Positions 20,443 through 62,444 of a stretch of DNA of 64,000 bases are shown here, one piece after another; position 1 is the first letter of the stretch, and the number at the start of each line of letters is the position of its first letter. Origin of the DNA: an uncultured bacterium (GTDB lineage Bacteria; Verrucomicrobiota; Kiritimatiellia; RFP12; UBA1067); NCBI GenBank assembly GCA_902761035.1, contig CACWIW010000003.1, positions 508 to 64,507 of the forward strand. Direction: 5' to 3'. The notes under the pieces were generated by a model, which saw only the letters and a list, made by a program, of their open reading frames with translations, did not search any database and was not told the origin of the DNA. Both the position numbers and the translations under genes were made by a program.

Positions 20443-20471
20443 TTGCGTTTTCGCGGGGAAAAGGCTATACT
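20443..20471 (+). promoter_or_regulatory. promoter-like TTGCGT (20443-20448), 17-bp spacer, TATACT (20466-20471)
   Basis: Read directly from the sequence, 30 nt upstream of the rpoZ start. Confidence 0.4.
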
Positions 20472-20500
20472 ACTCCTTTCCCTTGAACAGCGGAGGAAAA

Positions 20501-23329: not shown

Positions 23330-23388
23330 TTGCATTCGCGCCGATTCCGTGTATAATTGCACTTGTTTCTTAGGGAAAGTGTACACTT
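23330..23388 (+). promoter_or_regulatory. possible promoter (TTGCAT 23330-23335, 16-bp spacer, TG-TATAAT 23350-23357) followed by the 12-bp perfect palindrome AAGTGTACACTT (23377-23388)
   Basis: Read directly from the sequence. This is the last non-repeat segment before the C10 peptidase start at 23427. The -35 element is weak. Confidence 0.3.
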
Positions 23389-23426
23389 CCCCTGTAGGAT
23401 TTTGTCTGAATAGGACGGTGAGCCTT

Positions 23427-36032: not shown

Positions 36033-36058
36033 TTTACCTAGAAGGAAGGCGGTTCAAC

Positions 36059-39000
36059 ATGAACATGAAGAGAAAAATTGGCATCTGTGCCACGCTCCTT
36101 GCGGCGCTGCTGTTCGCAGTGCCCCAGTCGGCCCAGGCATCGGGCAAGATAAGGCGTGTCGACGTCTACGACCCCAGCGGCCTTCACACGTTTCCGAACC
36201 ACGATGGGCACGACAGGCCGCTGACGGTTGGCGACACTATCTACATCCGCTTCCGCCTTGCGAACCTCGAATGGCGGCGTACCGAGAATGATCCCTCCTA
36301 CACGAATCCGTGGGCGTTCACGTACACGGGGCCGCTAACTGGCAACGTGAGCATTGACGAGTTGAACCGGATCGCGGCGAACAAGCCGTGCCTCGGCCTT
36401 TGGGTAAGCGGTAGCCTCCGCGAGGCGGAGTGTGTCAACTGGCCGATGGGCGTTGCCTCCGACTGGCTGACCGCCGACGCACAAGATCCCAACGACCGAG
36501 GCTCCCTGAACGGCAGGCACTACACGGACCTCATCTTCAAGTACACAGTACAGGCTGGCGACATCGCCCTTCCGCTCCAGCTCGCCAATGAATCCGGCAA
36601 CGGCCCCTCCACAGGCGCCGAGGGGTATTACCTGAAGCGCGGCAAGCAGGACACTCTCTGGAAAATCCAGGCTACCACGAACTCGGCGGACACTGCGTAC
36701 ACCGTGACGGCGGATTTCAAGTTTGGCGAAGCGAACCTTGCTCTGGACCCTGATTTCAGCGGCGACGGAACTTCGTCCTGGCTTGATGCGCAGGACAGCG
36801 AAAACCGCGACCTCGACCTTTACATTGCGGGCGCGTACATCCAGGCCATTGACTTCGACAAGACGTACTTCAACGAGGGAGATGGGATTTGGCGCTCCAT
36901 CGCGCAGGGGTCGACCACGGCCGACCCCGGCACGCCCATGGTGGAAATCGCCGGCGGCGCGGCCGAGCCGATGAAGCTCTACCTGTGGACGACGAACGAC
37001 GTCGCCGAAATCGTGGTCGGCGGACAGGTGTATGAGGTCGTGGAGCGCGACTTCCGCGACGGGACGCACAAGGTGGGCACGCTCAGCATCACCGCCGGCA
37101 ACGAGAACGTGCCGTTCTCCATAAAGGCTACGGGAGCGGTCGGCGGCACTGCCGATATCTTCCTCTCCGCAACGCCGACGAACATCTACAATGATTCGAA
37201 CCTCCTCATCACCAACTTCATAAAGCGCACCATCAAGGTGGGCGAGCCGCTGCCCCCCAGCATGACCGTGAGCGTGAACGGCAAGAACCGGGATACGGTG
37301 GAGGCCAACCCGGACTTCAGCAAAGCCCTTGTGGCCGTGAGTGTCACATTGTCCGAGCCGTGGACGAACAACTACGAACTGTCCATCCCGATCAAGGTGA
37401 CGGTGAAGGAGGATCCTTCGCTGAACGCGACGAACTACGTGAGGATGTCGAGTGAGTCTGAATTTTTCAACGAAGCCTGGGAAGACGTGCTCACGGTGCC
37501 GGCCGGAACTCCGGCGAGCGGGAGCACCACCCCCACCTATTCGCTCTGGATGTACGCCAACCGCGGATCGGTAGAGACGGAGAACACCGGCCTGCTCGTG
37601 GAGGTGGATACGAACCGTCTGGACGCGGCCGCGCGCAGCATCTTCATCGGCAAGTTCACGCCCGCCACCGTGCTGGTGAAGCGCAGCACGCCCGAGATCA
37701 CGAAGGATGTGATCGTCACGGCGGATGCGAACGCCGACGCTCAGGTGACCGTGAACGTGGCCGACGCCTGGGGAGAGCTTCGCCCCCCCTGTACCTACAC
37801 GGTCTACTGGAGCAACTCCGGCAACGACTCGCCTGCTTACTACACGCCGATTTCCGACCTGGCCGCCACGGCTTCCGGCGACATTACCTTCAATGTCAAG
37901 TACTCGCAGAAGGGCGACTACGAGTCGCTGTTTTACGTGGTGAATGCGGATGGCAAGCAGTCGAACAAGCGTACCGCGTACGTACACGTGAACGCGGCGA
38001 AGGTGGTGGAGGCCACGCTCCTCAACCGCGGGAAATTCGCCGAAACCAATCCGTTTGACGAACCACAGCCAGTCGTCACACTTTCCTTCGGCGACGAAGG
38101 GTTCAGGATGCCGGACGATTCCGATTACGGGTACATTTTCTTTGTGCCGAAGAGCGATAACGCATCCAACCTCGTGACGTGCGCGGAGATGGACCGCGAC
38201 GACGAGCACGACTGGAAGTGGGGTGTTCAAGTGTATCGCGGCGACATGGAAGTCGGCCCGATTGAAATGACGCTCCTTGACGGTACCGCGAAGGGTCTCA
38301 AGATGGAGTACGACATCATCGTGCGTTCGGACCCTGACTTCGACTTGGGCTATCAGGTGACGAGCTGGAGCTCAAAGGGCTTCTACTTCACCGTTACGAA
38401 CGTGGCGCCAAACGTCAGCGCCGTGAAGATGGGTGCGGAGACGCTGTATGAGAGTGGCGGCCAGATGGGGAATGTGTCCCTTGGCGTGACGAAGTCGTTC
38501 TATGCCGAAACAGACGATCCATCGGACATCGACTTCTACGCCGACGAACCTAACTACGCCAATCAGGCAACAGTGTTCCAGACGCACTGGGACATCAAAC
38601 TCGGCACCAGCACCCTGTTCACCACCAACGTGTTCGGACCACCGACCGTACCGTTCAACTACACCTTCAGGCAGGCGGGAACATATACGGTTGAAGTGTC
38701 GATGCGCGACAAGGACTCGATTGACCGCACGCGCTATCCCGACAGATTCGGTCCGAAGTTCACGTTCACCGTGATTGTGGACTCCAAGCCCGCAGTCTCT
38801 CTTGCGCCTCATTTCGGAACGACCGCGTTCAATGAAAACTCCGGCGGTGCCGGCGAGAACGCCCTGAGCCGCATCGACGTGAACCTCTCGACCCTGCCGA
38901 CCGAGCAGATCGCCGTGCAGCTCACAATCGAGCGCGCGGGAGCGGACAACGGCAACTATCCCCTGCCCGAACTCAGCACCACGACGCTCTCGTTCGGCGG

Positions 39001-42000
39001 CGAAAGCCCCAATACAACCAACGCCTGGTTTACGCTGCGGAACCTGGACGGTACGGACCGTACGTTGGATCCCGGATTCGTGATTCGCGCCGCCGTCACG
39101 AACACGACGGTGAATGGCGACAGCGTGCCGTGGAAAGAAGTTTACCGTTCGACGGAACTTCCGATCACCATCGCAAACCTTGCGCCCGAGGTCACGCGGC
39201 CAGCTTCGAACACGGTTACGAGAGCCATCAACGAGCCGTTCACCATCAACTACACCTTCAAGGACTTCGGTTCCTACGATATGTATAACAATGGGGTCAA
39301 GGGCGAGACCCTATACTGGACAATCACCGGCGAGCCCTCGGTTGAGCAAACAATCACGCCGAACGCGAATACCTATCGTGGTACGTTCACGACCCAGTTC
39401 TCTAGCGCAGGCACCAAGACGATTCAGCTGCAGGTCGTGGACAAGGACGGCGGAGAGTCCGAGGTGGCCACATGGTACTACAGGGTCGATGCGGCCAAGC
39501 AGTTAATCGTCAATCCATGCGGCCCCGGTACAAGCGGTGGAGGCAATTTCGCGACCACATGGACCGGACAGCGCAACGTCGGCGTAGGCCGCGTGTGGGC
39601 AACAGGAGGCACAATCAAGCCGTTCTCCAACTTCTCGCACATCTACACCTACGCGCCGTCCATTGCCTCCGGCACCGCATTCGCCCATGGCTACAGCGCG
39701 GGGGCCGAAGACAGCGGCTCGCTGACGCCTGGAACGGACTATGCCGTCACGGACAGGGCGCATGGCGGCAGACACCCTGCAACAGGAAATTATTATAAGG
39801 CGGACGCGACGAAGGACAGCTTCTTCTACGCTTGGCTGCTAACGACGGGCGGCGGTGCGGCCGGCACCACCACGTCCCTGCTGAAACTCTCCCCGGAATA
39901 CGGTGCGGACAGCGTTGCAATGCAGCGCGTCGACCTTCCCGAAGAGGAGAAGGACGCCACTTACTATCCCGATACGGTCCTCGATGCAATCTTCTCGAAG
40001 GAATACCTCGTCTCCGACAACCTCGGCGACATCAACGGAGACCAGATTCCGGATGTTTACGCCGTGAGTCCGATCTGGGACGGCGGCAAGAGACTGTATG
40101 AAGTGGCCGGCTTCTCGGCCGAGTCGGGCGGCGACGTGTCGTTCCGCGCCTTCTCCTACAATGACGACGGCGACTACCTGCCGTCCAAGTCCTTCCAGGG
40201 CGGAATGCCGAGTACAAGCGACGGCTGGTCGACACTTGGCGAGCCATTCACCGCCTATAGGGAAATCCGCGGCCAACATGAGGGACTGAACCACCGCACG
40301 GAGCACGACGGGCTGAACCACTACGTCCGCGGCGAGTGGGTGTCCGTGCCGCACTTCTCCGAGGCCGAGACGAACGCCGTCGCGTACTGGAACGCCAAGC
40401 GCAACGGCAGTCCCACGCCCGATCTCGTGACATGGACGGAATTCAAGGCGGCTGCGACTAACGAGGCGACATACGCCACGGAATTTGCGGAATGGTCCAG
40501 CAAATTCGAGACCGCCGTCAGGGATCCGAACAGCTGGATCCCCGAGAAGCGCACGGACCCGACGCTTTGGGACACCGATGGCGACAGTCTGCCCGACGGC
40601 TACGAGTACTACTTCTGGTATAGGGCCGCCGTCGGCACGATTAATGACGGAAAATGGGTGCAGCTGACGGGCGAGAAGTTCACGCTGAACAACATCACAA
40701 AGGGCGATCCGCTTTCGCCAGAAGACATCATGAAGGCGTTCGACCCGACGGTTATGGCCAGCGGCGACATCGCCACGCGCGACACCGACAACGACGGCCT
40801 CACCGACCTCGAGGAATTCGCCATGGGCACCAATCCCATCCACTGGGACTCCGACGGCGACGGCATGAACGACCTCTGGGAGGTGATGCGCGGGTTGAAC
40901 CCGCTCAAGGTTCCCTCGAATCCCGAAATGAACCCGGACGGCGACTTCATGGCCTCCTACCACACGCCGAAATCGTACGCCATCGTGACGCTCAACAACG
41001 GAAAGGTCTACGCTCTCGAGCAGAACGGAACCAACCTCAAGACGTTCGAGGCGGAAAGCTTCGACGGCGACGGCGGCAAGACCAAGGGCGGCACGAACGT
41101 GCTCGCATCCGTCGTGTTCGGCGTGGAGGACGTCTCGAACGTCACGGCGATCGCCGTGTTCCACTACGGCAACAACTCCGCCGTGTGCGTGCCGAAGAAA
41201 CGCGGCAACCCCAATGCGCAGGAGAAGCCGCTCGATCCCGACGAGGTGAGCCTGGCCGATACGGAGGTCGTGTCGGTCCAGCTCAACCAGGATCTGATGC
41301 TCATCCACGACCAGGTCTACAACCAGCTTGAATTCCACCCGTACACGGCCTGGCACATCAACTCGAACGGAGACGTCTCCGCCCGCTGGGGCGCGGCCGT
41401 GAACACCGTGGCGTACAACTGCGTGGACGAATACCGCCTGATGAAGTACCGCTACGAGACGGGAATCGCCACCCGAGACAATAACCGGCCGCTTGCCGAC
41501 ATCTTCCTTGACCTCACCACCAATCCGAACAAGCCGTTCTCGGAGGCTGCCTATACCGTTTCCTGGGCCGGCACTGACGGCGGCGGATCGGAGCAGGTCG
41601 CAGCCGTCGCTGAGATTCCGACGTACTCCAGCACGAACCACGGCGCAGACACCGACGAGGACGGCATCCCCGACGGCTGGGAACTGTATGTGGGCGCCAA
41701 CCCAAACGACGCTCTAGACGCCAGCGGCGACGGCGACCACGACGGCCTGAGCCTGCGCAACGAATACGCCGGCTCCGACTCCTGCAACGCCTACGGGTTC
41801 GCCACTAACGGCAACAACGTGGGAACAATATACCAGTACCATCCCGGCCACGCAAAGGGCTGGTACAACAAGTTCACCCCGACCGACCCCAAGGACGGCG
41901 ATACCGACCGCGACGGCCTGAGCGACGGCAGCGAAGGCAGCGCGTTCATATACGGCGACCCGACGGACGACGGCTCCACGTGCATACGCGGCGGCGGCCT

Positions 42001-57000: not shown

Positions 57001-60000
57001 GGACGCCCGCGCCTCCTACGGCGACAACTTCGCTCAGGTCCCGTATGACCCGTATGACGAATACGGCTTCTGGAACAGCCTGGTGGCGGCCAGTGCCATC
57101 AATAGCACTGCGACGAACTTCGTTGCCGGAGTCGCGAACGCGGAGCTTGTGGCGGCACTCGACGTGTACACGAACGACTGGAACTACGCGAACGGCGTGA
57201 TGGCTTACGCGCAGACGACGGCTCACGTGGCGACGAACGGAACGGACAAGTTCGTGGTGGTGATCGCGGGCGCGGACGACCCGGACGGCGTCGCGGAGGG
57301 CGCGGTGAAGACGGTTCTCAGGACGGTGACGCTGCCGAACGGCGAGCTGGTCGCGTGGGGCGAGACGGCCGATGTCGACGTGGTGGGCCTGCCGATCGGC
57401 GAGGAGCCGGTGACGCTCATCCACAGGGCGGTCTACCACTTCTACGGCTTCGAGGCGGACACGGCCCGCGGCTGCATCAACGACGGCGCGGCGTCTGCTG
57501 CCCCGGCGGCGGCCGACGGCGAGGACGGCGAGGAGACGGCTGCGGCGGCCGCAACCACTGCGGCGGGCACGGGCCACACGGCACCGTTCACGCACGCGTG
57601 GCGCTACTTCACGAAGGAGATCGTGGGCTACGCGGATCCCGTCGAGGTGGTGTACGACTTCGAGGATGGCACGGGCGACGGCCTCGCGGACGGCTGGCAG
57701 CTGTATGTCGGCGGCAGTGACAGGCATGCCTACCAGTACCGCTACGACCCGGCGGACGACTACTACTTCTACAATAACCTCGCGGTGCAGGATCCGGAAT
57801 TCGCGGCTTCGCTGCCTCCGTACGACAATACGTTCGCCATCACGAACGGCATCGCGAACGCGACGGTGGAAGCGCAGAAGGCGTTCTGGGACTGGGCGCC
57901 GGAGGACGACTACATGGCATACGTCCAGACCAACGTGCTGATTTCGGTGGTCACGAACGCCGGCGGCGTGGCCTCGATCTACGCGATCGACCCGGGCACG
58001 AACACGCTCTACGAGACGTTCTACGTGGGCAACGAGCTCTTCGTGGGCGCGGTCTGCACGAACGAATACGCCTACAATGCGATGGAGAACGGCGACTTCA
58101 TGACGATGGTCACGAACGCGACGGTCATCCACTCCGCAGTCTACGACTGGTACGGATTCGACCCGACGACGGCCAAGCCTTCGTACTGGTGGCCCGAGTC
58201 CATTGCCTACCTGGCGGAATCCAACTCGAACTACACCGTCGGCGCGAACAGCGTTCCGTTCACGCGTAGGCTGAAGTACATCACGCAGACGATGTACCTG
58301 CCGATGGTGGGCGCGGAGGACGACTACTTCCTCACGACATCGTGGACGGCCGATCCCTCGACGTGGTGGACTGACACCAACGGCAACGACATGCCGGACG
58401 GCTGGGAGCTGTACGTGAAGTACTCCGCCTCGAGCGATCCCAGCAAGCCGGACGACGATTACAGGGAGGACTTCACCGACGGCAGCGACCCGAACACCGA
58501 CGACACGGACGGCGACGGAATCCCTGACGACGTCGAGCAGTTCTTCGGCGTAACCGATCCGACGGTGCCAGACGGCAACCTTGCGCTTGAGAACGACGTG
58601 ATGGCGTTTGCCACCGTAAACGCCACGGTCGTGACCGTGCAGAATACTGCGGAAGGCAGCCTGCCGGTGAAGTACCTCCTCGCAGAGGAAATGGCGGGCA
58701 ACACCGTGGTTGCGCCCAAGGTCGGAGACTACGCTGATTCGCTTGCGCTGCGCGCGACGTACGAATATCTCGTGTCGACCGACGCCAACGACGGCTCCGT
58801 GACGAACCGCTGCGGCGTGGGCACGAACGTGACGCTCACGGCCGCTGCCGGAACAGCCAACCGCATCGTGGCAGTGGCAACCGAGCCCGTGGTGCTCGTC
58901 CACGCGCAGGTGTACGACTACTTCGGCTTCAACAAGGACACCGCGAACCCGACGGCGGTCACGAAGGAGGGCGCGAACTATGTCTATGGCGCGAACACCA
59001 AGCCGTTCACGGTGCTGGACAAGTACCTCGTCGTCCGCTACCTCGAGGCATACGGCCTTGCCAACGCGGCGGCCGACTGGAAGGCGCTCGCGCTTGCGCC
59101 GGCTTCGTCCGACAACGACGCCGACGGCGTACCGGACGGCTGGGAACTGTACACGATGTTCGGAACCGAGGGCGTGACGGCCACGCTTGCCGCCGCCAAG
59201 ATCAGCCCGTACAACTACGCCGACGCCCGTGCGGTCGCTCCGGCAGGTGACATCACCCTGCTTGAGAAGTGGAACGGCGGCGCTCCCGCGTACGACCCGT
59301 GGTCGAAGGATTCCAACGACAACGGCGTGGACGATGTCGATGAGATCAGGTACGTTCTCGATGAACCATACGGTGACGCTGACAACGACCAGCTGCCGAA
59401 CTTCACGGAGTTCCTGATCGCGAGCGGCTTCTCGCAGTACTCGGAATTCGCCGGCGTGTCAGACATCTCCGCGACGAACACCTACTCGCTGACGAACCTC
59501 ATACCGGACTATTTCCGCCGTATAAACAACAAGCTCTACCTCGGCGAAATGTTCACCGACCACGACTTCATGGAAGACCTCTGGGAAGACCTGTTCGACG
59601 TGAAGAAGGTCACGCGCGGACTCTACGACCCGTGGCGCGATTCGGACAGCGACGGCTGGAGCAACTACGCCGAGTGCCGCGCTGGCACCAATCCCGAGTT
59701 CGAAGCCAATACATACGGCGTAAAGGGTATAGTTGTAAAGAACTATCCTATACCGACAATCCACGCCAAGGTCGTGATGGGCCCGGGCGAGGGCATGCTG
59801 AACGGCACGATAGTGGTGCAGGCCTTCTCTGACACGAGCAAGCTGACCGGTCTGCCCGACGCGACATGGACGGTTCCCGTGGGAACGTCGTCCGGCGATT
59901 CCACAACTGGTTCGTCCTCGTCCGATTCCAGCGAGAATTCTGCAAAGACCAAATACCTTGGCGCAAACCCGAACGGCGAGGTTTCCTTCACCCTGTCTCC

Positions 60001-62392
60001 CGGATTCGTCAAGCCCGGAAGCATCTCGATGTCGTTCCTTGATCCGGACTTTGAGGTCATCGACACCAACGGCGTCGTTACGGCGCTTGGCGACATCAAC
60101 ACCGCCGAATGGCAGGCACTTGCCGAGGATCGTCAAGTTACAGGTACGTCTAGTGGCAAGATTCTGGTCAGCACGCCGACGAATTCACTGGAGATCGGCA
60201 CAGTTGACTACCACACGGGTCTGGTGACGGTTGACTACACGAAGTTGCCGACATCGTTGCCTGTTGTCGCCGAAGGCAATGATGCGACGAATTCCGTCCT
60301 GCTGCATCTCGCCAACAGCCATGTGAGGGTTTCCTGGGAAGCGGAGGTTGCAGGCGGTAATCCGTGGATGACGCTGCACCTTACGGATAGTGATGACACA
60401 ACCTCCGAGCAGGCTACCTACGGCCACGTGCGCGAAGGCAAGAACACGTTCGTTGTGTTCGTTGCAGGCGAAGGCGGCAAGTGGGCACCTGGTAATGCAT
60501 ACGGAGTTGTGAAAGACGTTGACGTTGGCTGGTCGGAAGCGGAATTCACGGTTGAGCTGACCAAGACGACTCCGATCATGGCCCGCTTCAACCTCAGCGC
60601 GGCAATAAGCGCCACTTCTGGCAGCAGCGGCGGAGAGGGCTCAACTTCCGCTCTCACGGACCGTGACACCGTCAATAACGGCAGGGGGTATGCTCCGAAC
60701 GAAGAGTCCAAGTATCCCGGAACGAACATGCCCTCCAATGTGTCGCTTACGCGTGTGAGGGTAATTCGAAACTGGATTAACCGTAGCGGTTCTAGAGGAT
60801 CGACGAGCTATAGCGCAGTTCTGTTTGATCAGAAGATTGACCTCTCTGTGCATCCGACTTTGACGGAGGCTGACCTCTTGACCGATGGCGTATATGATCT
60901 TGACTGGGGTACGCTTCTCCCCGCTTTCGGTGGTGGTGCCTCTGGTTTGACAAATGCAACGTATCGCATTGTGATAGGCGACGACGAACTTGGCGATTAT
61001 GAGGATCGCGCTAACAATCTGCCGGTGCTCTTCTCCAACCTGTTTGAGGCGAAGCCGCGGCAGACGCTGACGGTACCGGATCCAAAGCTTGCTGAGATTG
61101 AGTATGCAGGCCGTCCGACGTTCCGCTGGTCGCACACGAACACGATTGACAAGGCCTATCCGGCATTCCAGCTCCGAATCTATAAGTCCGACAAGACGAC
61201 AATCGTCTATGACTCCGGCGTGCAGCGTGCACCTGCCCGCGACTCGGATGGCATGTACGAGTGGACGGCACCTGTTTACGCAGGAATGGTCACGTCGAGC
61301 AACCATGTCTTCGAAGTCACGAACAACTACTACTGGGCGGTGTCAATGCTCGACGCGAAATTCACGACTTTCAACTACAACGAAACAAAGACGCCGTTCC
61401 GCCTTGGCACGAGTGGCAACCTGCTTGACGGCAAGGACTATGGTGCCATTGCCGTGCGCGTGAAGTACTTCGGCCCGCTCATTAGGCTTTCTGCGGTTCC
61501 AACGACCAAGAAGAACCTCGTGCGCGTCCAGGCGTTCACGTCGCCGGACTTCTCCGGCCTGCCCGTGGCTGAGACGTACGTCACCGATGTTTCGAAGGTT
61601 GCATATACATCCGTTATCGTCACTAACGCTGTCATTCGCGGCGTGGCGTGCGGCGGCACCTACTACGTGCGCGCCTACATCGACACCGACGCCGATGGCG
61701 TGAAGTCCGATTGGGAGTCGTGGGGCTACAACTGCTTCGTGCTTGATCCAGCGGTCACGTCCGTCTGGAGGCCGAAGCCGGTTACAGTGTCCTATCAGGA
61801 CATGATGCCCGATGCCACAGTGTTCATTGAAGATGCGGATACTGATAACGACGGATTCCCGGATGCTTGGGAGTGGAACGAGAATGGAAACCTTTCCGAC
61901 CAGGGTCCGATTAGCGGCAATACGTTCTTCGCGACGGTCAACCCGACGTTGACCTCCACGTTAAACGCCTACTCGCTGATCGCGGGCGGTATTGAAGGGG
62001 CGACGGCCGCGACGGGCAACATGCGGAACAACAGGCTGCAGGCGTCAATCAGCGCAAGTGCGCAGATTCTTGCCGACGCATCCGAGAACACTGCGGTGCA
62101 GATCAAGGCGTTCTCGCTTGAAGACGGCCTTGAGCTGGAGGTCGTGAACACCACGTCCGGCGGCGATTCCTCAAGCATGATCGTGTTCTCCAAGCAGGCG
62201 ACGGTCCAGTTGTCGCTCGCGTGCTCCGCGACGCCCGACTTCGCCGACGCGGTGGAGGTGCCGATCAAGTCGATCACGATCTACGCGAACCAGAAGACGA
62301 CTGATGGCATCGCCGTCACGGCCGAGGAGCTCGCCGAGGCTCGTGCCAAGGCACCAGAGGCCCGCTTCTTCAAGGCAATCATCACGAAGTGA
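36059..62392 (+). CDS. giant secreted multidomain protein, 8777 aa (PKD-like, TSP type-3-like Ca-binding repeats, LamG, four large super-modules)
   Basis: A single frame stays open for 26.3 kb. The signal peptide MNMKRKIGICATLLAALLFAVPQSAQA starts at the ATG at 36059; the upstream ATG at 36029 overlaps the previous stop and adds no signal. About three dozen D-x-D-x-D-G-x-x-D-x-x-E motifs were counted by eye. The sequence is amino-acid-like in this frame only. Confidence 0.9.
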   Translation: MNMKRKIGICATLLAALLFAVPQSAQASGKIRRVDVYDPSGLHTFPNHDGHDRPLTVGDTIYIRFRLANLEWRRTENDPSYTNPWAFTYTGPLTGNVSIDELNRIAANKPCLGLWVSGSLREAECVNWPMGVASDWLTADAQDPNDRGSLNGRHYTDLIFKYTVQAGDIALPLQLANESGNGPSTGAEGYYLKRGKQDTLWKIQATTNSADTAYTVTADFKFGEANLALDPDFSGDGTSSWLDAQDSENRDLDLYIAGAYIQAIDFDKTYFNEGDGIWRSIAQGSTTADPGTPMVEIAGGAAEPMKLYLWTTNDVAEIVVGGQVYEVVERDFRDGTHKVGTLSITAGNENVPFSIKATGAVGGTADIFLSATPTNIYNDSNLLITNFIKRTIKVGEPLPPSMTVSVNGKNRDTVEANPDFSKALVAVSVTLSEPWTNNYELSIPIKVTVKEDPSLNATNYVRMSSESEFFNEAWEDVLTVPAGTPASGSTTPTYSLWMYANRGSVETENTGLLVEVDTNRLDAAARSIFIGKFTPATVLVKRSTPEITKDVIVTADANADAQVTVNVADAWGELRPPCTYTVYWSNSGNDSPAYYTPISDLAATASGDITFNVKYSQKGDYESLFYVVNADGKQSNKRTAYVHVNAAKVVEATLLNRGKFAETNPFDEPQPVVTLSFGDEGFRMPDDSDYGYIFFVPKSDNASNLVTCAEMDRDDEHDWKWGVQVYRGDMEVGPIEMTLLDGTAKGLKMEYDIIVRSDPDFDLGYQVTSWSSKGFYFTVTNVAPNVSAVKMGAETLYESGGQMGNVSLGVTKSFYAETDDPSDIDFYADEPNYANQATVFQTHWDIKLGTSTLFTTNVFGPPTVPFNYTFRQAGTYTVEVSMRDKDSIDRTRYPDRFGPKFTFTVIVDSKPAVSLAPHFGTTAFNENSGGAGENALSRIDVNLSTLPTEQIAVQLTIERAGADNGNYPLPELSTTTLSFGGESPNTTNAWFTLRNLDGTDRTLDPGFVIRAAVTNTTVNGDSVPWKEVYRSTELPITIANLAPEVTRPASNTVTRAINEPFTINYTFKDFGSYDMYNNGVKGETLYWTITGEPSVEQTITPNANTYRGTFTTQFSSAGTKTIQLQVVDKDGGESEVATWYYRVDAAKQLIVNPCGPGTSGGGNFATTWTGQRNVGVGRVWATGGTIKPFSNFSHIYTYAPSIASGTAFAHGYSAGAEDSGSLTPGTDYAVTDRAHGGRHPATGNYYKADATKDSFFYAWLLTTGGGAAGTTTSLLKLSPEYGADSVAMQRVDLPEEEKDATYYPDTVLDAIFSKEYLVSDNLGDINGDQIPDVYAVSPIWDGGKRLYEVAGFSAESGGDVSFRAFSYNDDGDYLPSKSFQGGMPSTSDGWSTLGEPFTAYREIRGQHEGLNHRTEHDGLNHYVRGEWVSVPHFSEAETNAVAYWNAKRNGSPTPDLVTWTEFKAAATNEATYATEFAEWSSKFETAVRDPNSWIPEKRTDPTLWDTDGDSLPDGYEYYFWYRAAVGTINDGKWVQLTGEKFTLNNITKGDPLSPEDIMKAFDPTVMASGDIATRDTDNDGLTDLEEFAMGTNPIHWDSDGDGMNDLWEVMRGLNPLKVPSNPEMNPDGDFMASYHTPKSYAIVTLNNGKVYALEQNGTNLKTFEAESFDGDGGKTKGGTNVLASVVFGVEDVSNVTAIAVFHYGNNSAVCVPKKRGNPNAQEKPLDPDEVSLADTEVVSVQLNQDLMLIHDQVYNQLEFHPYTAWHINSNGDVSARWGAAVNTVAYNCVDEYRLMKYRYETGIATRDNNRPLADIFLDLTTNPNKPFSEAAYTVSWAGTDGGGSEQVAAVAEIPTYSSTNHGADTDEDGIPDGWELYVGANPNDALDASGDGDHDGLSLRNEYAGSDSCNAYGFATNGNNVGTIYQYHPGHAKGWYNKFTPTDPKDGDTDRDGLSDGSEGSAFIYGDPTDDGSTCIRGGGLNPCGVDTDFDLLPDGWERQYQGTVVPAGRGFEGINPDIVQIIKRNDNLGSNAVIRAYISFGMDGTYNDAFKVPTANQVDPRTGTRRNLDFDNDGLLNFQEYLVQVLRHLRYDDTETPLMGSYLPDGIAGTRKYIGFLPMHVWDGATFFKTARAAGFTGLSARQGDGFKFRELGYFAPPEKTWDLTMSGSRLLKPPRGLSDIATADDENRMGASRYVGTDPRDWDTDRDGMDDYYELFHGLNPLLGSKDIISEAYNTTLSNDKLFSARCTAWSNWEEKELVYDAMRFPWAMGVAEADADGDGLRNTDEALLVNMPNPPNYHTDPTPLWMTDSSSKISVTAQYYCRDPYASGEGDDIPALSTFPWFTYVDGRDPGSVNKYMFTFEENEGYDTDHDWIPDEQELTHAVTSATSPLHGSDPDRRQAMYFPGEESVVQSYSGNLHRRIGENYAMLRAFSVEAWVRPEDLSREQTIVTRVCNYPSSTLSNATHQVRANFRIKMEAGGRVWGQYDSDDAVPNGSPKGFGTTSVEGITLESNKWSHVALTFDGSALIIYVNGIPVGNSPASLIPANGLIVTLQEVNPNGSNYGVDGYDTYPSALLIGADAKELGALDIGPDSAWTNYCAHYKGWVDEVRVWDGARTEAQIKADYTKRYTLKDVSELRDMVYREWLEGGTHNPNDGRPNLSPELVFHYGFQQLPSEVEADYVTSEPSGFTERVLDNVKWNGRSVDIRCGWWNAVPIASTVYGNRAIVPWVRDTCAMLPMMDGSTYDSRYWSELIGGVTFPVEVGVAQFLFPNVANPYPYWNYMAETFFREQRLNWMRGSIGGDTTNVVFDVYNRIRFGTRTLFVGGSDLLPLGGAFAKRCPDFWDGNGSTDAWTATVDDTDNDGLPDWWEAHAVAEYGADAATLIAATMVNYKLPSGAVVEMSAWEAYQIDLALGIMPGEPPTYDPAYESLADNNNDGLPDWWQKLYDVYDLDPDDDPDNDGLSNYYEWLISWGDEYGFGIANGFPLLNPRRIRTGRSQEVTDYFLRNDTSAEYAGYYFGEITSDHDFMEDWWEKTYKQDYASIGVYDPWDDKDEDGWSNFAECRNALWGGTYTADAISRYFDGEQMSLCYPSPALGVRVTYNGAQNVVGKPLVVRTHTGFQKREDATFVVVGASADVQENTKFIGGYYTGATTLRGFIDPGAVIPAEGHFKQAWLVTGKTYRWDVPNYYTYPRVGSYEEFMADVLRFGRANVILLTSELDWKNLGTTRAIDSLGKHGVIDAVDGSKQIGTIDFSTGEYSLDMAAIATLNENDLEGCVFKVDYQTRVSRDWPQSFWLSAPKEGRVREGKNTIEAFIDLNEDGNYTPGEPFGVAQNVDVGWYRTSETLIELTDTISVVPRMNIASLANDRTVVGGVSGGVALGSGEEGNSEGSSGQSSGNNANGLTKQVRIVRRAINGVDAPNRILMNKSFVLNDRAYIHEGDVLSPSRLDLDWQWLATDAAEMEIDTIRTVEYAIEEVRKLSDGATTNIQLATFLNHYNPSRSVPTAVRPVDGEPVHSATPTFRWAVGDETMTAFELQVRDADGVVVYDSGIQRLPGRTATFVDTAHYAFNPLLSVDTCTSTNGSPVFADGTNWQWRVALFNAKYNTVDEAAWSQWADFRTDTVNDGIATGYGSCTAAVRYYGPGTIDDPGLVVVDAFTTPDFSGQPLARARLSSIDKLSSIDDVTTTNTCFRGIEPGTVYLRAFFDRNNNGKWDRWEPWGYANRRDELASVSDIFSPRGMTVTGDRAENVPSITIYIEDTDVNRNKIVDVLEDEALFGNTVSEVDADGDGMGEVEENDIGTDPSVWDSDGDGMPDGWEFRFAATDPLMADASKTAEGDVMAYAEENWMLVTDASDAMYLVNPTNTDVRVGDVLPLARLVSTYDYAGKYGVGTNLTDTVTTFRVSKVEDVTAVFVHAQVYDRYGYSPLTAVPAENAVHTKPFTSLDKYLLIRYFESLGFCNEAEVNANRIWADFSLKPNDPDNDRDGVYDGWELYVMFGTNEMGVVNLTGGTIVSPWNSEDRYTRFDGSTGGLALIEDYDDGYMPTDPWHSTTEALGLVGIDDVDAFRFRLKSIESQLADDDNDGLSNWAEYLAYKLTGKYFDVKNPCSVTPNRLDYFYQFEQGGVMKYIGECIDIDGFGLIADHDFMEDYNEDLYDVDLLNRYSYDPFLDADGDGWSNYAEARAGTASDRTVTLSIEDSKYPEYPIPVIKADFLYRGSESLGGGVILQAYRAGSAKSDAEWKSATPGLDGVKTKILGTWRNGALRFMLSPSNVRPGSVNIQAKDLAFVYTDSIYNWPSWYNDIWYAGTAAEAEWFDIVSDRQRDDDRLRGDLIYNKTILTSSSSDSNAAVTNNEIRIVGWVDYLTGQCEIDFTALDGYFYRNIMAGANFRAMRYNLENSYFRVRHNSEFVTDSVKQTFYFSECANGMLLEGKYNFMAFIDANSDGTYTIGEPMGVVRDVNVGWDRVPDLLIELTDDTVAGARFTVPAQTNGATRVRVLRTAINGVPMERKRTVYVKTLDLTKGRTFSEVDFIKDGEYDFDWANLAADAQALLGIEASNILNADYAVYLDSGDPTPIYTFSRSFDAMNLAPAVSWASISNHNVVATAQPTLKWKASAGYPAFALQIAKDEDFTDVIYSVTNLMPAATADGCQFKPDVYAGYGLEDGSNYFWRVQQVNAKFTTNIWSSAASFTMKVDSSNADTGYGKLRAEVRYFGPATDDLTNVVVGVYESADFVSMPVARMRLSGDGKVTDLTNDLTQAFSVVATSGVSVVTLDGIKPGTYYLMAFIDSNGNSVRDPWETWGYANKVGTDGRDIYTPVSVTVKSAKSATPSAYIVMEDTDVNQNWIPDCIDTVDLEGWKPSSEVKPDEPTADVDTDGDGLTDAEEDDYGTDPRNPDTDGDGLPDGFEVQAGTDPLFADSDLAGANDVMAYKLDTLTIMVATNAEGSVTNRFVVNSRFEDGYPQMSNTVYTVFEVNGQLFVGAPTNRAAATDGYMYGYMTTNVVVMHSAVYDFYGYDPTTAKPGTATVDDEGNATTALGANTVPFSAYLKYVTQQYYLKEFGDATNDFALAINKLDSNANYLPDGYELYVRYATWHDPSVSYSDADARSSYGDNAAGMAYDPYEEYLFFNRLENKVGVVKFTNFEACRYNIIDGDLLKDEDNDGLSNYHEFLASKAPYNVMLDVMNAMSDGATLDYFRTAGGTYLGLALNGGEFIENEARTKMGIDILDMAGTRYRPSDGWDYWSIARYNYANADTNGLATPLPTPEPPVTMTLRWRNPHWTQYQAQGVTIKAYQVNPAYPEQGEDEMIAWAPSANNFEPDTTFGGGVAVLRADKLAWRLSSDPDPDTGVFNLKPGKVRFEVTLDDTDFAGSAETVIGWAGVDVTVTLTDRANGLSYLPEIQRNDSASHVAIIRTKVNGQAVTPRGVWYKVYSNNIDRRTVMPTEFMDDEFIGIDKFLAEADETMLGTTLDKVESVTYEVLTGTPPFTTANLNGDVAEEAGDEAEAASRNQTFTMHYSLERDKAEIFSFEDGVEGTATLTFGPSTNSASWKFWVKVENTFNGNCVTNIYGGDRGFLIPTFTAEGRVTIDPAEYGIALTEGTNVVCVALGNDKFGAPAEDDEAAWSAPATFYTNKAADFPGSITLDVRHPLIAPADLKPANLVVAAYELPDLAKPVVIGAKTMVVTNSTVITGLRPRAKYYVAAWYVSDKDARLGTAAALERKPWDTWGYAADIGSDKVAAFTPVAVAADSTEPVVVYLQDTDWNDNIVIDREEIFSAADNDYTGSYFGAAILDFDRDGLPDAWEELFGNDPTLADDAGVAADGDVMAYFEEQRTAVIVTNSTGEATTYLLPHDALVAPKVGDEFSATDTLSLFTSYEYGNLLGEGTNVTLDAGRVVSISNATVAIVHWQVYDRFGFDPKTCVKDDDAVNTKEFTALDKYLLLKHFAALGFNDGADTLANWEAWTLKPGVVDADGDGIADGWELYTMFGPNDKTTANMKLSPWNYADRNNKLSPDGLLSSVEEYDGGNSPTDPYSDDTDLDGITDAVAYDYQIKSAESQLADYDNDGLSNWAEYLASLLTGVDFDVRNPYTFGNRLDYFYRYNGMYVGESVDADGLGLIADHDFMEDYVEDVIGYNRYVYDASIDKDGNGWDNWSEVRARYNEATWVVVGEETNTYTRTFNSFTPEAKAQWQMWYDNEFFPKVLGGTRTAWLVSARYYNANGEEKFTYTGDVAGYPINDSSCEVIWYELDDKKSYGGKPLPNVNVRIYGVEGGASNITVAAYSDKNLRSPDATFEVEGKAVDGVVAASFVGDGMKQGLNTFVVTAGAKTGFAKASVGFDRVDVEIVLRDGAIAFTVEPQTDATTRVRVLRTAINGTTVAPRAVYAKTLDLRSGKTFTEADLVKDGEFDFDQTYLEADAIAAGIVASATEIRSVGYAVYLDWGDAQPIYTFTRTFDAQNLAPAASGASAQHGYVVASAQPALTWKASAGYPAFALQIATENTFADDKIVYATTNVMPGVAADGCTFKPEIYVGDGLDDATTYFWRVAQLNSKFTTNKWSEVAEFTTAVNVSNADTGYGRVAVDLRYFGPSAETLDKVVVGVYESADFTTEPVARMHLVGAGGVSALARDPAAGKEFTEVTTNVVIDGIAPGDYYVMAFIDANGNHKRDAWETWGYVNKIGTDAADLYTPVSLKVVSTKAGAPSAFLVMEDTDVNQNWTPDCIEPAANFDGWTPAQQIEPDQPTAEDIDSDGDGLTDAEEDDYGTDPRNPDTDGDGLPDGWEVKNGTDPLFADADLAGLNDVMAYKVDALKVMFTTNDVGEVTGRYVVNSRFEDGYEQQSNTVYTVFEVGGQLYVGAPTNRVDVTNAYAYAFMTNVVVMHSAVYDFYGYDPTTAKPGTVQAVAGEDGAATEQTVQGVNTVPFTAYLKYVTQMFYLKEFGDATNDFALAINKLDSNANYLPDGYELYVRYAVWHDPALTYDDADARASYGDNFAQVPYDPYDEYGFWNSLVAASAINSTATNFVAGVANAELVAALDVYTNDWNYANGVMAYAQTTAHVATNGTDKFVVVIAGADDPDGVAEGAVKTVLRTVTLPNGELVAWGETADVDVVGLPIGEEPVTLIHRAVYHFYGFEADTARGCINDGAASAAPAAADGEDGEETAAAAATTAAGTGHTAPFTHAWRYFTKEIVGYADPVEVVYDFEDGTGDGLADGWQLYVGGSDRHAYQYRYDPADDYYFYNNLAVQDPEFAASLPPYDNTFAITNGIANATVEAQKAFWDWAPEDDYMAYVQTNVLISVVTNAGGVASIYAIDPGTNTLYETFYVGNELFVGAVCTNEYAYNAMENGDFMTMVTNATVIHSAVYDWYGFDPTTAKPSYWWPESIAYLAESNSNYTVGANSVPFTRRLKYITQTMYLPMVGAEDDYFLTTSWTADPSTWWTDTNGNDMPDGWELYVKYSASSDPSKPDDDYREDFTDGSDPNTDDTDGDGIPDDVEQFFGVTDPTVPDGNLALENDVMAFATVNATVVTVQNTAEGSLPVKYLLAEEMAGNTVVAPKVGDYADSLALRATYEYLVSTDANDGSVTNRCGVGTNVTLTAAAGTANRIVAVATEPVVLVHAQVYDYFGFNKDTANPTAVTKEGANYVYGANTKPFTVLDKYLVVRYLEAYGLANAAADWKALALAPASSDNDADGVPDGWELYTMFGTEGVTATLAAAKISPYNYADARAVAPAGDITLLEKWNGGAPAYDPWSKDSNDNGVDDVDEIRYVLDEPYGDADNDQLPNFTEFLIASGFSQYSEFAGVSDISATNTYSLTNLIPDYFRRINNKLYLGEMFTDHDFMEDLWEDLFDVKKVTRGLYDPWRDSDSDGWSNYAECRAGTNPEFEANTYGVKGIVVKNYPIPTIHAKVVMGPGEGMLNGTIVVQAFSDTSKLTGLPDATWTVPVGTSSGDSTTGSSSSDSSENSAKTKYLGANPNGEVSFTLSPGFVKPGSISMSFLDPDFEVIDTNGVVTALGDINTAEWQALAEDRQVTGTSSGKILVSTPTNSLEIGTVDYHTGLVTVDYTKLPTSLPVVAEGNDATNSVLLHLANSHVRVSWEAEVAGGNPWMTLHLTDSDDTTSEQATYGHVREGKNTFVVFVAGEGGKWAPGNAYGVVKDVDVGWSEAEFTVELTKTTPIMARFNLSAAISATSGSSGGEGSTSALTDRDTVNNGRGYAPNEESKYPGTNMPSNVSLTRVRVIRNWINRSGSRGSTSYSAVLFDQKIDLSVHPTLTEADLLTDGVYDLDWGTLLPAFGGGASGLTNATYRIVIGDDELGDYEDRANNLPVLFSNLFEAKPRQTLTVPDPKLAEIEYAGRPTFRWSHTNTIDKAYPAFQLRIYKSDKTTIVYDSGVQRAPARDSDGMYEWTAPVYAGMVTSSNHVFEVTNNYYWAVSMLDAKFTTFNYNETKTPFRLGTSGNLLDGKDYGAIAVRVKYFGPLIRLSAVPTTKKNLVRVQAFTSPDFSGLPVAETYVTDVSKVAYTSVIVTNAVIRGVACGGTYYVRAYIDTDADGVKSDWESWGYNCFVLDPAVTSVWRPKPVTVSYQDMMPDATVFIEDADTDNDGFPDAWEWNENGNLSDQGPISGNTFFATVNPTLTSTLNAYSLIAGGIEGATAATGNMRNNRLQASISASAQILADASENTAVQIKAFSLEDGLELEVVNTTSGGDSSSMIVFSKQATVQLSLACSATPDFADAVEVPIKSITIYANQKTTDGIAVTAEELAEARAKAPEARFFKAIITK
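38390..39500 (+). other. two PKD/Ig-like domains inside the giant ORF (about 38390-38790 and 39165-39500)
   Basis: The first reads VTNVAPNV...AGTYTVEVSMRDKDS...FTFTVIVDSKP. The second reads IANLAPEV...AGTKTIQLQVVDKDGGES...YYRVDA. Both resemble the GxYTVTLxVxDxxG pattern. Confidence 0.45.
40572..40905 (+). other. first cluster of thrombospondin type-3-like Ca-binding repeats
   Basis: It contains DTDGDSLPDGYE, DTDNDGLTDLEEFAMGTNP and DSDGDGMNDLWEVMRGLNP. Confidence 0.6.
43268..43939 (+). other. LamG / concanavalin-A-like lectin domain (Laminin_G_3-type)
   Basis: It reads MYFPGEESVVQS...FSVEAWVRPEDLSREQTIVTRV...WSHVALTFDGSALIIYVNGIPVG...YKGWVDEVRVWDGARTEAQIKADY. Confidence 0.65.
45137..61855 (+). 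repeat. four paralogous super-modules of the giant ORF: 45137-47356, 48494-50593, 54422-56200, 59558-61855
   Basis: Each module runs through the same order of landmarks: DHDFMED(W/Y/L).E; D.DGDGWSN(F/Y)AE; G(K/L)NTF..F.D.N.DG; DV.VGW...L.ELTD; RVRVLRTAING; PT(F/L)(R/K)W...YPAF.LQI; YG...V.RYFGP; F(T/S).P(D)F; W(E).WGYAN; EDTDVN. Confidence 0.85.
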
Positions 62393-62444
62393 TTGTTCAC
62401 AAATGGCAAATGTCACAATTGTTCACAAATGACAAATCTCAATT
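62391..62444. repeat. TTGTTCACAAAT-family repeat (two direct copies plus ACAAATCTCAATT)
   Basis: GATTGTTCACAAATG lies at 62391-62405 and CAATTGTTCACAAATG at 62416-62431. The same words occur at 17076-17107, and inverted at 17300-17314. Confidence 0.85.

Follow-up and report, generated by a model that had tools for sequence, protein, structure and literature searches.

A 26.3-kb gene of uncultured rumen Kiritimatiellae encodes a predicted calcium-binding giant surface protein of a family that appears to grow by copying a 1,100-residue block

The window, a 64-kb stretch of DNA from an uncultured rumen bacterium of the Kiritimatiellae, contains a single reading frame of 26.3 kb, which raises the questions of whether this frame is a real gene, how it reached its size, and what its product might do. 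The frame lies at 36059..62392 on the forward strand and comprises 8,777 codons plus TGA, its single terminal stop. The mature product would be an acidic protein of about 958 kDa with a pI of 4.3, a net charge of about -626, and 14.4% Asp and Glu residues, and Cys occurs only 45 times in the 8,777 amino acids.

A sequence-only reading of the window had placed the frame between a signal peptide and the TGA at 62390-62392, and it is indeed open for all 8,777 codons from the ATG at 36059. The ORF listing contains one frame at 36029..62392 (+), which is 8,787 amino acids long when counted from its first ATG and whose start overlaps the stop codon of an upstream lipoprotein gene as ATGA. The ATG at 36029 was rejected because the intervening spacer TGATTTACCnAGAAGGAAGGCGGTTCAAC (about 26-29 nt) is conserved at the nucleotide level in the orthologous loci L001-L006, despite only 43-84% identity of their N-terminal protein regions to that of the window, and because it is interrupted by an in-frame stop in L005. 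In L004, CTG replaces the upstream ATG. Given the L005 stop and the L004 CTG, the spacer is a leader rather than coding sequence; in the window it extends from the lipoprotein stop to the giant ATG (36033..36058, +) and carries a strong ribosome-binding site, AGAAGGAAGGCGG.

At the same composition, 8,777 consecutive open codons have a probability of about 1e-120. GC content at codon positions 1, 2, and 3 is 0.575, 0.447, and 0.80, and GC3 stays at 0.67-0.90 in all 1.5-kb blocks of the frame, a coding signature along its full length. Comparison with L007, a 98%-identical strain, gives a dN/dS of 0.083 in frame versus >2 in shifted frames, a value taken from an ungapped 6.66-kb block only, the first 4.8 kb being left out owing to indels. 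The 26.3-kb frame is a real, single, uninterrupted gene under purifying selection, in agreement with the earlier impression that it reads as protein throughout.

A competing explanation holds that the frame is an artefact of repeat-induced misassembly, or else a decaying or inactivated relic. The window derives from a short-read metagenome, the gene contains paralogous blocks, and most database copies of the family are fragments annotated ‘hypothetical protein’, the majority of them truncated by contig ends. In addition, the L007 assembly has a 32-nt frameshifting deletion at the position of window 40875-40906, which may mean that the giant gene is dispensable or phase-variable, or that the L007 assembly is wrong. 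Against misassembly, the longest internal repeats at the DNA level reach only 71-88% identity over at most 300 nt, and TRF found no tandem array inside the frame; repeat-driven misassembly is therefore unlikely. The frame also shows the same coding signature all along, dN/dS stays at 0.08 in the part downstream of the L007 deletion, and L001, a different species, keeps the sequence at that site undeleted. The collinearity of orthologues extends over more than 4,400 amino acids. In an independent 174.5-kb assembly of the same species, also from the rumen, the gene is found uninterrupted at the same place; its product has 8,539 amino acids and is 98.9% identical to the window protein across the first 3,324 residues, and this intact gene largely answers the doubt about contiguity. 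An artefact or relic is thus very improbable, and that explanation can be regarded as already largely refuted.

The giant protein consists, from N- to C-terminus, of a signal peptide, about ten Ig-like domains, a TSP3-rich region, a LamG domain, a series of A and B modules, an Ala/Ser linker, and a C-terminal domain. The predicted Sec-type (SPase I) signal peptide MNMKRKIGICATLLAALLFAVPQSAQA (36059..36139, +) holds the sole hydrophobic 19-mer of the protein. It ends in AQA, with SGK following the cleavage site; it contains no Cys and no lipobox, and it is retained in orthologues. Judged by hydrophobicity, the full protein has no transmembrane segment other than the signal peptide and no hydrophobic helix at its C-terminus.

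The N-terminal array (36140..39508, +) is composed of about ten Ig-like/FN3-like beta-sandwiches. Its AF2 model has a mean pLDDT of 72 and consists almost entirely of strands, and Foldseek matches to this model are confined to multi-Ig, FN3, and macroglobulin arrays. The region had been described as a beta-rich N-terminus of ~1100 amino acids with PKD-like domains. The beta-sandwich array is supported by the model, in which the sandwiches are generic Ig-like folds, and ‘PKD-like’ is best read in this general sense. PF00801 scores 21.9-22.1 bits in the window against a cutoff of 23.5, just short of threshold, and is recorded for the orthologues P0006 and P0008. A Gly/Thr-rich region follows at 39509..40540 (+), recognised by composition and by low pLDDT at its start, and Pfam at permissive E gave no match to it. 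The Gly-rich segment proposed here is present and modest, with 18 Gly per 100 residues around aa 1151-1250.

The first TSP3-rich region (40541..42930, +) contains about ten bacterial TSP3 Ca-binding-type loops and one B-like unit. TSP3_bac (PF18884, cutoff 25 bits) matches at 49.8 and 105 bits. Core motifs range over nt 40781-61838, and an extra degenerate copy at 40553 accords with a predicted onset of the repeats at about 40.6 kb. The count of three dozen D-x-D-x-D-G-x-x-D-x-W-E motifs given previously applies to looser forms only: the strict 12-residue form DxDxDGxxDxWE occurs 10 times, a relaxed form 29 times, and the core [DN]x[DN]x[DN]G 41 times, compared with 0 to 2.5 motifs in composition shuffles. 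A single Laminin_G_3 domain (PF13385), which has the concanavalin A-like lectin/glucanase fold, lies at 43352..43687 (+; aa 2432-2543) within the 43.3-43.9 kb interval where one LamG domain had been expected. It is matched at E-values of 5e-16 to 3e-18 and 59.6-66.9 bits against a cutoff of 27.6, and permissive Pfam searches of its surroundings found nothing besides LamG. A fold of this type does not by itself establish that the domain acts as a lectin.

The remainder of the protein is dominated by supermodule A (~900 aa), present as four full copies and one degenerate copy, interleaved with six B modules (~200 aa), so that one A+B pair measures about 1,100 amino acids. The A copies were mapped with an HMM built from the four copies, and the B copies were likewise mapped by HMM; all lie on the forward strand. 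Copy 1 of A (44612..47431, 1306 bits) contains three TSP3 loops and about six beta-sandwiches, one of them DUF2141-like, and is the sole internal A copy found in ~4,000-aa orthologues. Copy 1 of B (47411..47998, 308 bits) consists of a tandem TSP3 pair and a region with a conserved H-x-Q/A-V-Y-D-x-x-G-F/Y motif. These are followed by A copy 2 (47984..50698, 1308 bits), B copy 2 (50678..51328, 298 bits), the degenerate A copy (51266..53383, two partial HMM matches of 42 and 52 bits), B copy 3 (53387..53968, 274 bits), A copy 4 (53948..56311, 977 bits), B copy 4 (56291..56950, 301 bits), and two further B-type modules at ORF aa 7288-7461 and 7484-7691 (57890..59101, 53 and 105 bits). The last A copy (59084..61873, 1276 bits) is kept in all family members.

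Chunked BLAST aligned ORF aa 4461-5144 with aa 6335-7018 at 58-74% identity, the paralogous block shared by A copies 2 and 4, along with many weaker pairs, and the large internal paralogous blocks noted in the first reading are therefore real. The AF2 model of nt 59111-62389 has a pLDDT of 75.7 and a pTM of 0.74, and its last A unit is compact and not obviously rod-like. Foldseek with the last-A model returned FN3/Ig arrays only and no enzyme fold. Foldseek matches to sperm axoneme proteins, complement, contactins, and the lambda tail tip were set aside as reflecting fold class, not homology.

The giant protein belongs to a small family, so far without a name, from uncultured rumen Kiritimatiellae, and no known member is larger. 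The family is defined here by a conserved N-terminus, at least one A supermodule, a terminal FFK[AV] beta-sandwich, a lipoprotein gene immediately upstream, and a position beside ackA, all of which the window gene has. A survey of orthologues at the same locus gave sizes from 4.0k to 8.8k amino acids that rise with the number of A copies: one copy in proteins of about 4.0k (most orthologues), two in those of 5.1-5.5k, and three in that of 6.6k. Two further orthologues, outside this copy count, measure 5,135 and 6,403 amino acids. The window allele, with four full copies and one degenerate copy, is the longest in the family, and the two alleles of its own species measure 8,539 and 8,777 amino acids. 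The short orthologues correspond to window aa 11-3785 plus 7695-8785, that is, to both ends of the window protein joined, which places the variation in length in its middle part alone. This pattern suggests that the family grows through copying of a block of ~1,100 residues.

At the C-terminus, a conserved SGNTFFATVNP motif is followed by a flexible Ala/Ser-rich linker (61898..62086, +; pLDDT <50 at model residues 930-992) and a family-specific beta-sandwich of ~105 amino acids (62063..62389, +) that ends in ARFFKAIITK and is a candidate anchoring or sorting domain. A profile of this domain found 80 matches among 1.84 billion representatives, nearly all at the extreme C-terminus. The exceptions are two multi-stretch matches, one of which, P0082 (4,517 aa, 14 matching stretches), was rejected as a family member and is an unrelated repeat protein. 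Pfam and PDB contain no match for the domain, and it corresponds to no known anchor. A further possibility considered was that the C10 peptidase (ending in RFYKVV) or the Flg_new protein, both encoded nearby, has the same sorting domain at its C-terminus. BLAST and hhalign gave no significant result, and hhalign aligned just the terminal FFK/FYK strand at a probability of <2%, leaving a sorting domain common to the giant, C10 peptidase, and Flg_new proteins unsupported.

The lipoprotein gene (35523..36032, +) encodes 169 amino acids with the lipobox LVGC, a Pro-rich linker, and a helical/coiled-coil body, and Pfam at permissive E assigned it to no family. Its homologues form 157 clusters, all of 98-183 amino acids (most 150-183) and unannotated. 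The lipoprotein gene immediately precedes the giant gene in all of the roughly 20 loci inspected, at a spacing of 26-27 nt in close relatives and 14 nt in L008/L009 and with a 4-nt overlap in L010/L011. The conserved gene order is amidohydrolase, C10 peptidase, (Flg_new), lipoprotein, giant, and ackA. Scans for sigma-70 promoters and intrinsic terminators at both ends of the giant gene found nothing on the + strand. The 64-kb window contains no tRNA or Rfam matches and no secretion genes, including those of a T1SS. A lookup of the window AckA (405 aa), intended to reach the 3′ ends of the giant gene in other assemblies, returned nothing on record.

The synteny of the C10 peptidase gene with the giant gene across the family bears on a possible role as a scaffoldin-like organiser, in which the Ca loops would act in a dockerin- or cohesin-like manner and recruit enzymes such as the C10 peptidase. 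Dockerin- and TSP3-rich giant proteins are on record, and a scaffoldin-like role has been suggested for those of the Omnitrophota (West-Roberts et al., 10.1101/2023.11.21.568195). A profile search with the TSP3 cluster also gave a weak EF-hand/lanmodulin-like match, but at E about 0.06 it is not significant. Moreover, dockerin and cohesin Pfam matches are absent from all segments at E up to 0.1, and the C10 and Flg_new proteins have no detectable module in common with the giant protein, which makes this role quite improbable.

HMM scans with Pfam and NCBIfam on the whole protein, 900-aa segments, and the last 200 amino acids (to E 1) detected no enzyme, toxin, RTX, cadherin, Big, dockerin, LPXTG, PEP-CTERM, or T9SS signals. 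The lack of RTX, cadherin, and Big repeats and of a recognisable anchor is upheld by these scans, as is the statement that the protein is unlike classical giant adhesin types, for which membership tests failed. PDB searches with both protein halves and with profiles A1, A2, and A3 gave no significant match, the best being an EF-hand/lanmodulin and a 6-Cys domain at E about 0.05-0.07.

The giant protein resembles the RTX giant adhesins LapA, SiiE, and MpIBP as a near-megadalton, acidic, non-enzymatic, predicted surface protein with predicted long runs of beta-sandwich extenders and predicted Ca2+ sites, putative ligand-binding domains in one region, and an extender copy number that varies among relatives (features from PMC7493085 and PMC6272769). 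However, it has an N-terminal Sec signal, it lacks RTX nonapeptides (GGxGxD) and a T1SS signal at the C-terminus, and its gene has no ABC/MFP/TolC neighbours. Its repeating unit is a multi-domain supermodule of ~1,100 amino acids rather than a single BIg domain of ~100, with TSP3 loops as the predicted Ca sites. In RTX adhesins, extender repeats are known to be made rigid by Ca2+ (PMC7493085), and by analogy the repeats of the giant protein are proposed to serve as similar extenders.

Large to giant extracellular proteins with Sec signals and TSP3 repeats are already known from the PVC superphylum (bioRxiv 10.1101/2023.11.21.568195; PMC12057145), which weakens the earlier statement that proteins of this size are rare in bacteria. 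Like the giant protein, the Omnitrophota dockerin/TSP3 giants and other PVC TSP3 proteins with Sec/SPI signals come from bacteria known only from metagenomes, are very large and predicted to be extracellular, combine bacterial TSP3 with carbohydrate-binding-type domains, and have been suggested to elongate via internal duplication. The Omnitrophota giants have many dockerin/EF-hand and TSP3 repeats, at least 30,000 amino acids, and a predicted membrane anchor (10.1101/2023.11.21.568195). By contrast, the giant protein has 8.8k amino acids, lacks dockerin, discoidin, CASH, Rhs, and lyase domains as well as transmembrane helices beyond the signal peptide, and differs further in its partner lipoprotein and in a C-terminal domain specific to its own family.

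Among NCBIfam models, the best partial matches are to the gliding-motility adhesin CglD and the cell-cohesion protein MtsD of Myxococcus, both of which, like the giant protein, contain clusters of bacterial TSP3 repeats and have known or proposed roles in adhesion (10.1101/2023.10.19.562135). CglD (NF033765) scores 58.6 and 62.7 bits against an equivalog cutoff of 400, at model positions 137-237 only, and MtsD (NF047639) scores 47.4 and 51.6 bits against a cutoff of 800. The match spans just ~100 residues of TSP3. The giant protein is 8-13 times larger, and Pfam scans found no VWA/integrin-like domain of the kind that characterises CglD. Thrombospondins and COMP combine a LamG-like module, type-3 Ca-binding repeats (DxDxDGxxDxxD/E), and a C-terminal beta-sandwich, the same combination as in the giant protein. 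The giant protein, however, lacks EGF, TSR, and disulfide-rich repeats and has no detectable sequence relation to them beyond the repeat. The likeness is one of convergent motif use, not membership.

Myxococcus MtsD and eukaryotic thrombospondins organise extracellular matrix, and the giant protein could similarly be released as a matrix, S-layer-like, or biofilm scaffold in which Ca2+ cross-links cells or polysaccharide into aggregates. The thrombospondin-type domain combination, the partial matches to CglD and MtsD via TSP3 regions, the strong acidity, and the lack of a recognisable anchor are all consistent with such a scaffold. However, the scores of 47-63 bits fall far below the cutoffs of 800 and 400, and the strictly conserved upstream lipoprotein and the terminal position of the C-terminal domain are better suited to tethering. 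A released scaffold is thus unlikely.

The giant protein is probably a Sec-exported, calcium-loaded acidic fibre of ~1 MDa that serves rumen Kiritimatiellae as a non-enzymatic surface adhesin or spacer. Its N-terminal head (~2,850 aa), which comprises the Ig-like array, TSP3 loops, and LamG, would be the distal end of the fibre and the likely site of ligand or glycan binding, with LamG as a putative glycan-binding domain. The conserved C-terminal base would consist of the last A supermodule, the flexible Ala/Ser linker, and the beta-sandwich of ~105 amino acids, with a variable number of A+B supermodules between head and base. Ca2+ binding by the TSP3 loops of A+B is predicted to stiffen the chain, and the number of copies would thereby set the distance from head to cell, as proposed here. 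The coiled-coil lipoprotein, which is probably co-transcribed, may serve as an outer-membrane tether or chaperone for the giant protein, acting via the C-terminal domain of the latter.

A more speculative extension, which we consider possible but rather unlikely, is that the lipoprotein and the C-terminal beta-sandwich (...FFK[AV]xxK) form an undescribed two-component tethering or export device for Sec-dependent megadalton fibres of Kiritimatiellae, and that gain and loss of A+B units between strains and species is an adaptive ‘reach-tuning’ for attachment in the rumen.

Kiritimatiellae are common, uncultured members of the rumen community. The giant gene encodes by far their largest protein, at about 1 MDa, and occupies a fixed chromosomal position across many species. 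The family, known in databases mostly from fragments, is well suited to trying out assembly and annotation. Its series of 4k, 5k, 6.5k, and 8.8k amino acids, which arises by duplication of a single supermodule, illustrates giant-gene growth cleanly in nature and permits testing whether fibre length matters. Through the invariant lipoprotein and the C-terminal domain peculiar to the family, a new route may come to light by which diderm bacteria hold Sec-exported giant proteins at their surface.

The giant gene occupies positions 36059-62392 of the forward strand. The ORF listing and its translation extend the frame to 36029..62392 (+), or 8,787 aa counted from the first ATG, with a lone stop at the end. 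The start at ATG 36059 proposed by the sequence-only reading, which gives 8,777 residues, is borne out by a leader lying between the stop of the upstream gene (36030-36032) and this codon. The leader, TGATTTACC(T/A)AGAAGGAAGGCGGTTCAAC, is conserved base by base across six related genomes, in which the proteins share just 43-84% identity. In the related locus L005 it carries an in-frame TAA, and in L004, another such locus, CTG replaces the upstream ATG. This nucleotide conservation, together with the TAA and the CTG, identifies the stretch as a leader bearing a strong ribosome-binding site, gives a protein of 8,777 residues, and rules out ATG 36029 as the functional start.

The giant frame is coding along its whole length. 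A stop-free run of 8,777 codons has a chance of ~1e-120 at the base composition of the ORF, codon positions 1/2/3 have GC fractions of 0.575/0.447/0.80, and no 1.5-kb block leaves the GC3 range of 0.67-0.90. Purifying selection acts on the gene: in an ungapped 6.66-kb block shared with the 98%-identical strain L007 (ENA ERZ913622 scaffold_1139), 70 differences are synonymous and 20 non-synonymous, with a dN/dS of 0.083 in frame and 2.0-2.5 in the two shifted frames. The ORF, GC3, and dN/dS thus uphold the earlier claim of a single, real protein-coding frame.

The giant protein is exported, acidic, and non-enzymatic, and consists of a chain of beta-sandwiches and TSP3 Ca-loops; its mature form has a mass of ~958 kDa, a pI of 4.3, and a net charge of ~ -626. 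Its residues are numbered here from 36029; subtracting 10 gives the numbering from 36059. The signal peptide MNMKRKIGICATLLAALLFAVPQSAQA/S (aa 11-37) contains the sole hydrophobic 19-mer of the protein and has no lipobox. It is followed by an array of ~ten Ig-like beta-sandwiches (aa ~38-1160; AF2 pLDDT 72), for which Foldseek returned only Ig/FN3/macroglobulin arrays. Of the PKD-like N-terminal region described earlier, the beta-sandwich array therefore stands, while the PKD score itself falls just under threshold. Next come a Gly/Thr-rich segment without assignable fold (aa ~1160-1500), a TSP3-rich region (aa ~1500-2300), and a Laminin_G_3 domain (aa 2442-2553; nt 43352-43687; E 5e-16). TSP3 motifs number 10 in the strict form DxDxDGxxDxWE, 29 in a relaxed form, and 41 as a core, compared with 0 to 2.5 in shuffles. 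These counts and the Laminin_G_3 E-value confirm the TSP3 repeats and the single LamG domain; the estimate of three dozen motifs fits the relaxed and core counts and fails for the strict form.

The large internal paralogous blocks noted from sequence resolve into two repeat types. Supermodule A (~900 aa) comprises three TSP3 loops and then ~six beta-sandwiches, one of them DUF2141-like, with full copies at aa 2862-3801, 3986-4890, 5974-6761, and 7686-8615 and a degenerate copy at aa 5080-5785. Module B (~200 aa) contains a tandem TSP3 pair and a conserved HxQVYDxxGF region, and its copies lie at aa 3795-3990, 4884-5100, 5787-5980, 6755-6974, 7288-7461, and 7484-7691. After aa 8604, the last TSP3 loop, an SGNTFFATVNP motif, and an Ala/Ser linker (pLDDT <50) lead to a C-terminal beta-sandwich (aa ~8680-8787). 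The AF2 model of the last A unit and the C-terminus has a pLDDT of 75.7 and a pTM of 0.74, and Foldseek matched it to FN3/Ig arrays only. Domain scans covered the whole protein, ten segments of ~900 aa (E up to 0.1), and the final 200 residues (E up to 1); none of them returned an enzyme, toxin, RTX, cadherin, Big, dockerin, VWA, LPXTG, PEP-CTERM, or T9SS domain, in agreement with the reported absence of RTX, cadherin, and Big repeats and of a recognisable anchor. A sequence search found no significant PDB relative. A scaffoldin-like role, in which the protein would organise enzymes, is improbable, since neither dockerin nor cohesin was found.

Across the family, the ends of the protein are invariant and the middle changes in length by whole supermodules. 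Three complete orthologues from species-representative genomes (L002-L004; 4,125, 4,060, and 4,073 aa) align to aa 11-3785 and then 7695-8785 of the window protein, which therefore has ~3,900 extra residues in its middle. A profile of the C-terminal domain matched only 80 of 1.84 billion representative proteins, and nearly all of these carry it at their extreme C-terminal end, apart from two multi-stretch matches. One of the two, the database protein P0082, is an unrelated repeat protein and was rejected as a family member. Complete members from this search cluster at 3,883-4,146 aa, with a few at 5,057-5,547 aa and one at 6,576 aa, and look-ups through the lipoprotein partner added complete genes of 4,101, 5,135, 6,403, and 8,539 aa. 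Proteins with one A copy measure ~3,900-4,150 aa, those with two 5,057-5,547 aa, and that with three 6,576 aa; the window protein, with four full copies and one degenerate copy, is the largest seen at 8,777 aa. The survey of orthologues suggested by the sequence-only reading thus gives sizes from ~3,900 to 8,777 aa, which track A copies in the members where these were counted. The expansion is not very recent, because copies A2 and A4 share 58-74% identity and a second A copy is already present in L001 and L005.

Agreement with the window comes from two independent assemblies. L007 spans 26133-47566 with 97.8-98.6% identity, while L012 (ENA ERZ28613024, STEW19 scaffold_48, 174.5 kb) is of the same species, with 98.9% aa identity across the first 3,324 residues. 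The L012 gene, called after the lipoprotein from locus position 10537, encodes 8,539 residues, 238 fewer than the window allele, a gap of about one B module. In L001, a more distant relative, 4,487 residues align collinearly with the window, and the frame has not closed where the locus ends. Within the giant ORF, the longest DNA repeats (136-300 nt, 71-88% identity) lie ~5.6 kb apart, and TRF detected no tandem array inside it; misassembly driven by repeats is unlikely. At position 14828, L007 lacks 32 nt (window 40875-40906) within a tandem TSP3 pair, and the resulting frameshift splits the gene call into products of 1,750 aa and 2,099 aa (or longer). The undeleted sequence is common to the window and L001. 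The part downstream of the deletion remains under purifying selection, so the 32-nt loss reflects either a mistake in the assembly or an allele inactivated very recently, as a knockout or phase variant. The notion that the giant gene itself is an artefact or a pseudogene is largely refuted and highly improbable.

The window is ordinary chromosome, and its genes include smc, scpA, scpB, trpS or tyrS, hemB, lysS, an amidohydrolase gene, and ackA. Homologues of the giant gene come from metagenome-assembled "Kiritimatiellae bacterium" or "uncultured Lentisphaerae" genomes from goat omasum, cattle rumen, and other ruminant datasets. The conserved gene order is amidohydrolase, C10 cysteine peptidase, Flg_new-repeat protein (present in close relatives), small lipoprotein, giant gene, and ackA. 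Long ORFs of up to 1,365 aa on the strand opposite smc and the giant gene (1805-5275(-), 54806-58903(-), and others) were rejected as genes, being expected by-products of 61% GC and a GC3 of 0.8. ORFs at 13530-15035 (501 aa), 16839-18224 (461 aa), and 20470-21432(-) (320 aa) have no Pfam family; the last is a real conserved gene, as its product is 74-80% identical in L002-L004.

The small lipoprotein (169 aa; 35523-36032 (+)) has an LVGC lipobox, a Pro-rich spacer, and a helical body, and matches no Pfam family. Its homologues form 157 unannotated clusters, all of 98-183 aa and most of 150-183 aa. In all ~20 loci inspected, the window included, its gene immediately precedes the giant gene and shares its strand, which demonstrates strict coupling. 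The spacer is 26-27 nt in close relatives and 14 nt in the L008 and L009 loci, and the two genes overlap by 4 nt in L010 and L011.

Two further large secreted proteins are encoded directly upstream on the same strand, their genes separated by 8 nt: a C10 (streptopain-family) cysteine peptidase (23349-27191; 1,280 aa), syntenic throughout the family, and a Flg_new (Listeria-Bacteroides) protein (27200-35428; 2,742 aa, 24 repeats) with a PEPGNTDT proline-rich tandem repeat at 34116-34333. The genes for these two proteins, the lipoprotein, and the giant protein may make up a ~39-kb operon for surface proteins. A small beta domain predicted at the end of the peptidase (26990-27188; ...YVLYGSDDLTTWEAV...KRFYKVV) resembles the ...ARFFKAIITK end of the giant protein (62063-62389) and the FFKV/FFRV endings of distant members. 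Neither BLAST nor hhalign found significant similarity between the two C-termini; the resemblance raises the idea of a common C-terminal sorting domain. Between the giant stop and the true ackA start (ATG 62482) lies a 26-nt direct repeat, ATTGTTCACAAATGACAAATCTCACA (62392-62441; 1.9 copies, 91% match), a possible operator or promoter element of ackA. In distant members, ackA is followed by pta, a SIS/CBS isomerase gene, an Amuc_1102-family gene, and PilM (L010:21551-24015, L008:17882-18604); this run, beyond the window end, is similar to the Akkermansia Amuc_1098-1102 pilus-like or type II secretion-like cluster.

The giant protein works like a giant adhesin, yet it falls outside the named types. 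It is not an RTX/T1SS adhesin because it has a Sec signal and lacks RTX repeats and T1SS genes. It scores 59-63 bits against CglD (cutoff 400) and 47-52 bits against MtsD (cutoff 800). Unlike the Omnitrophota dockerin/TSP3 giant proteins of at least 30k aa (10.1101/2023.11.21.568195), it has 8.8k aa and neither a dockerin nor a transmembrane anchor. It belongs to the broad classes of bacterial TSP3-repeat and LamG_3-containing proteins and also to a lineage-restricted family that has no name and is defined in this analysis. Since PVC bacteria are reported to have large extracellular proteins of the Sec/SPI plus TSP3 type (10.1101/2023.11.21.568195; PMC12057145), the kind of protein is already known. 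The sequence-only reading was correct in setting this megaprotein apart from classical giant adhesins, but its kind has precedents. The literature searched holds no description of the family, its supermodule, its C-terminal domain, or its lipoprotein partner. The giant gene is real, intact, and remarkable; it is not unprecedented.

By analogy with the extender regions of RTX adhesins, which are rigidified by Ca2+ (PMC7493085), the giant protein is probably a cell-surface fibre or adhesin. Ca2+ binding by the TSP3 loops would stiffen the chain, the N-terminal Ig/TSP3/LamG head would bind a ligand, probably a glycan, and the A+B copy number would set the reach of the fibre. Attachment to the outer membrane might be through the linker and the C-terminal domain, with possible help from the lipoprotein, although these tether details are considerably less secure than the general reading. 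An unlikely alternative is that the protein is released and serves in a matrix or in cohesion. Of the leads that emerge, the clean copy-number series and the pairing of the lipoprotein with the C-terminal domain are the most valuable.
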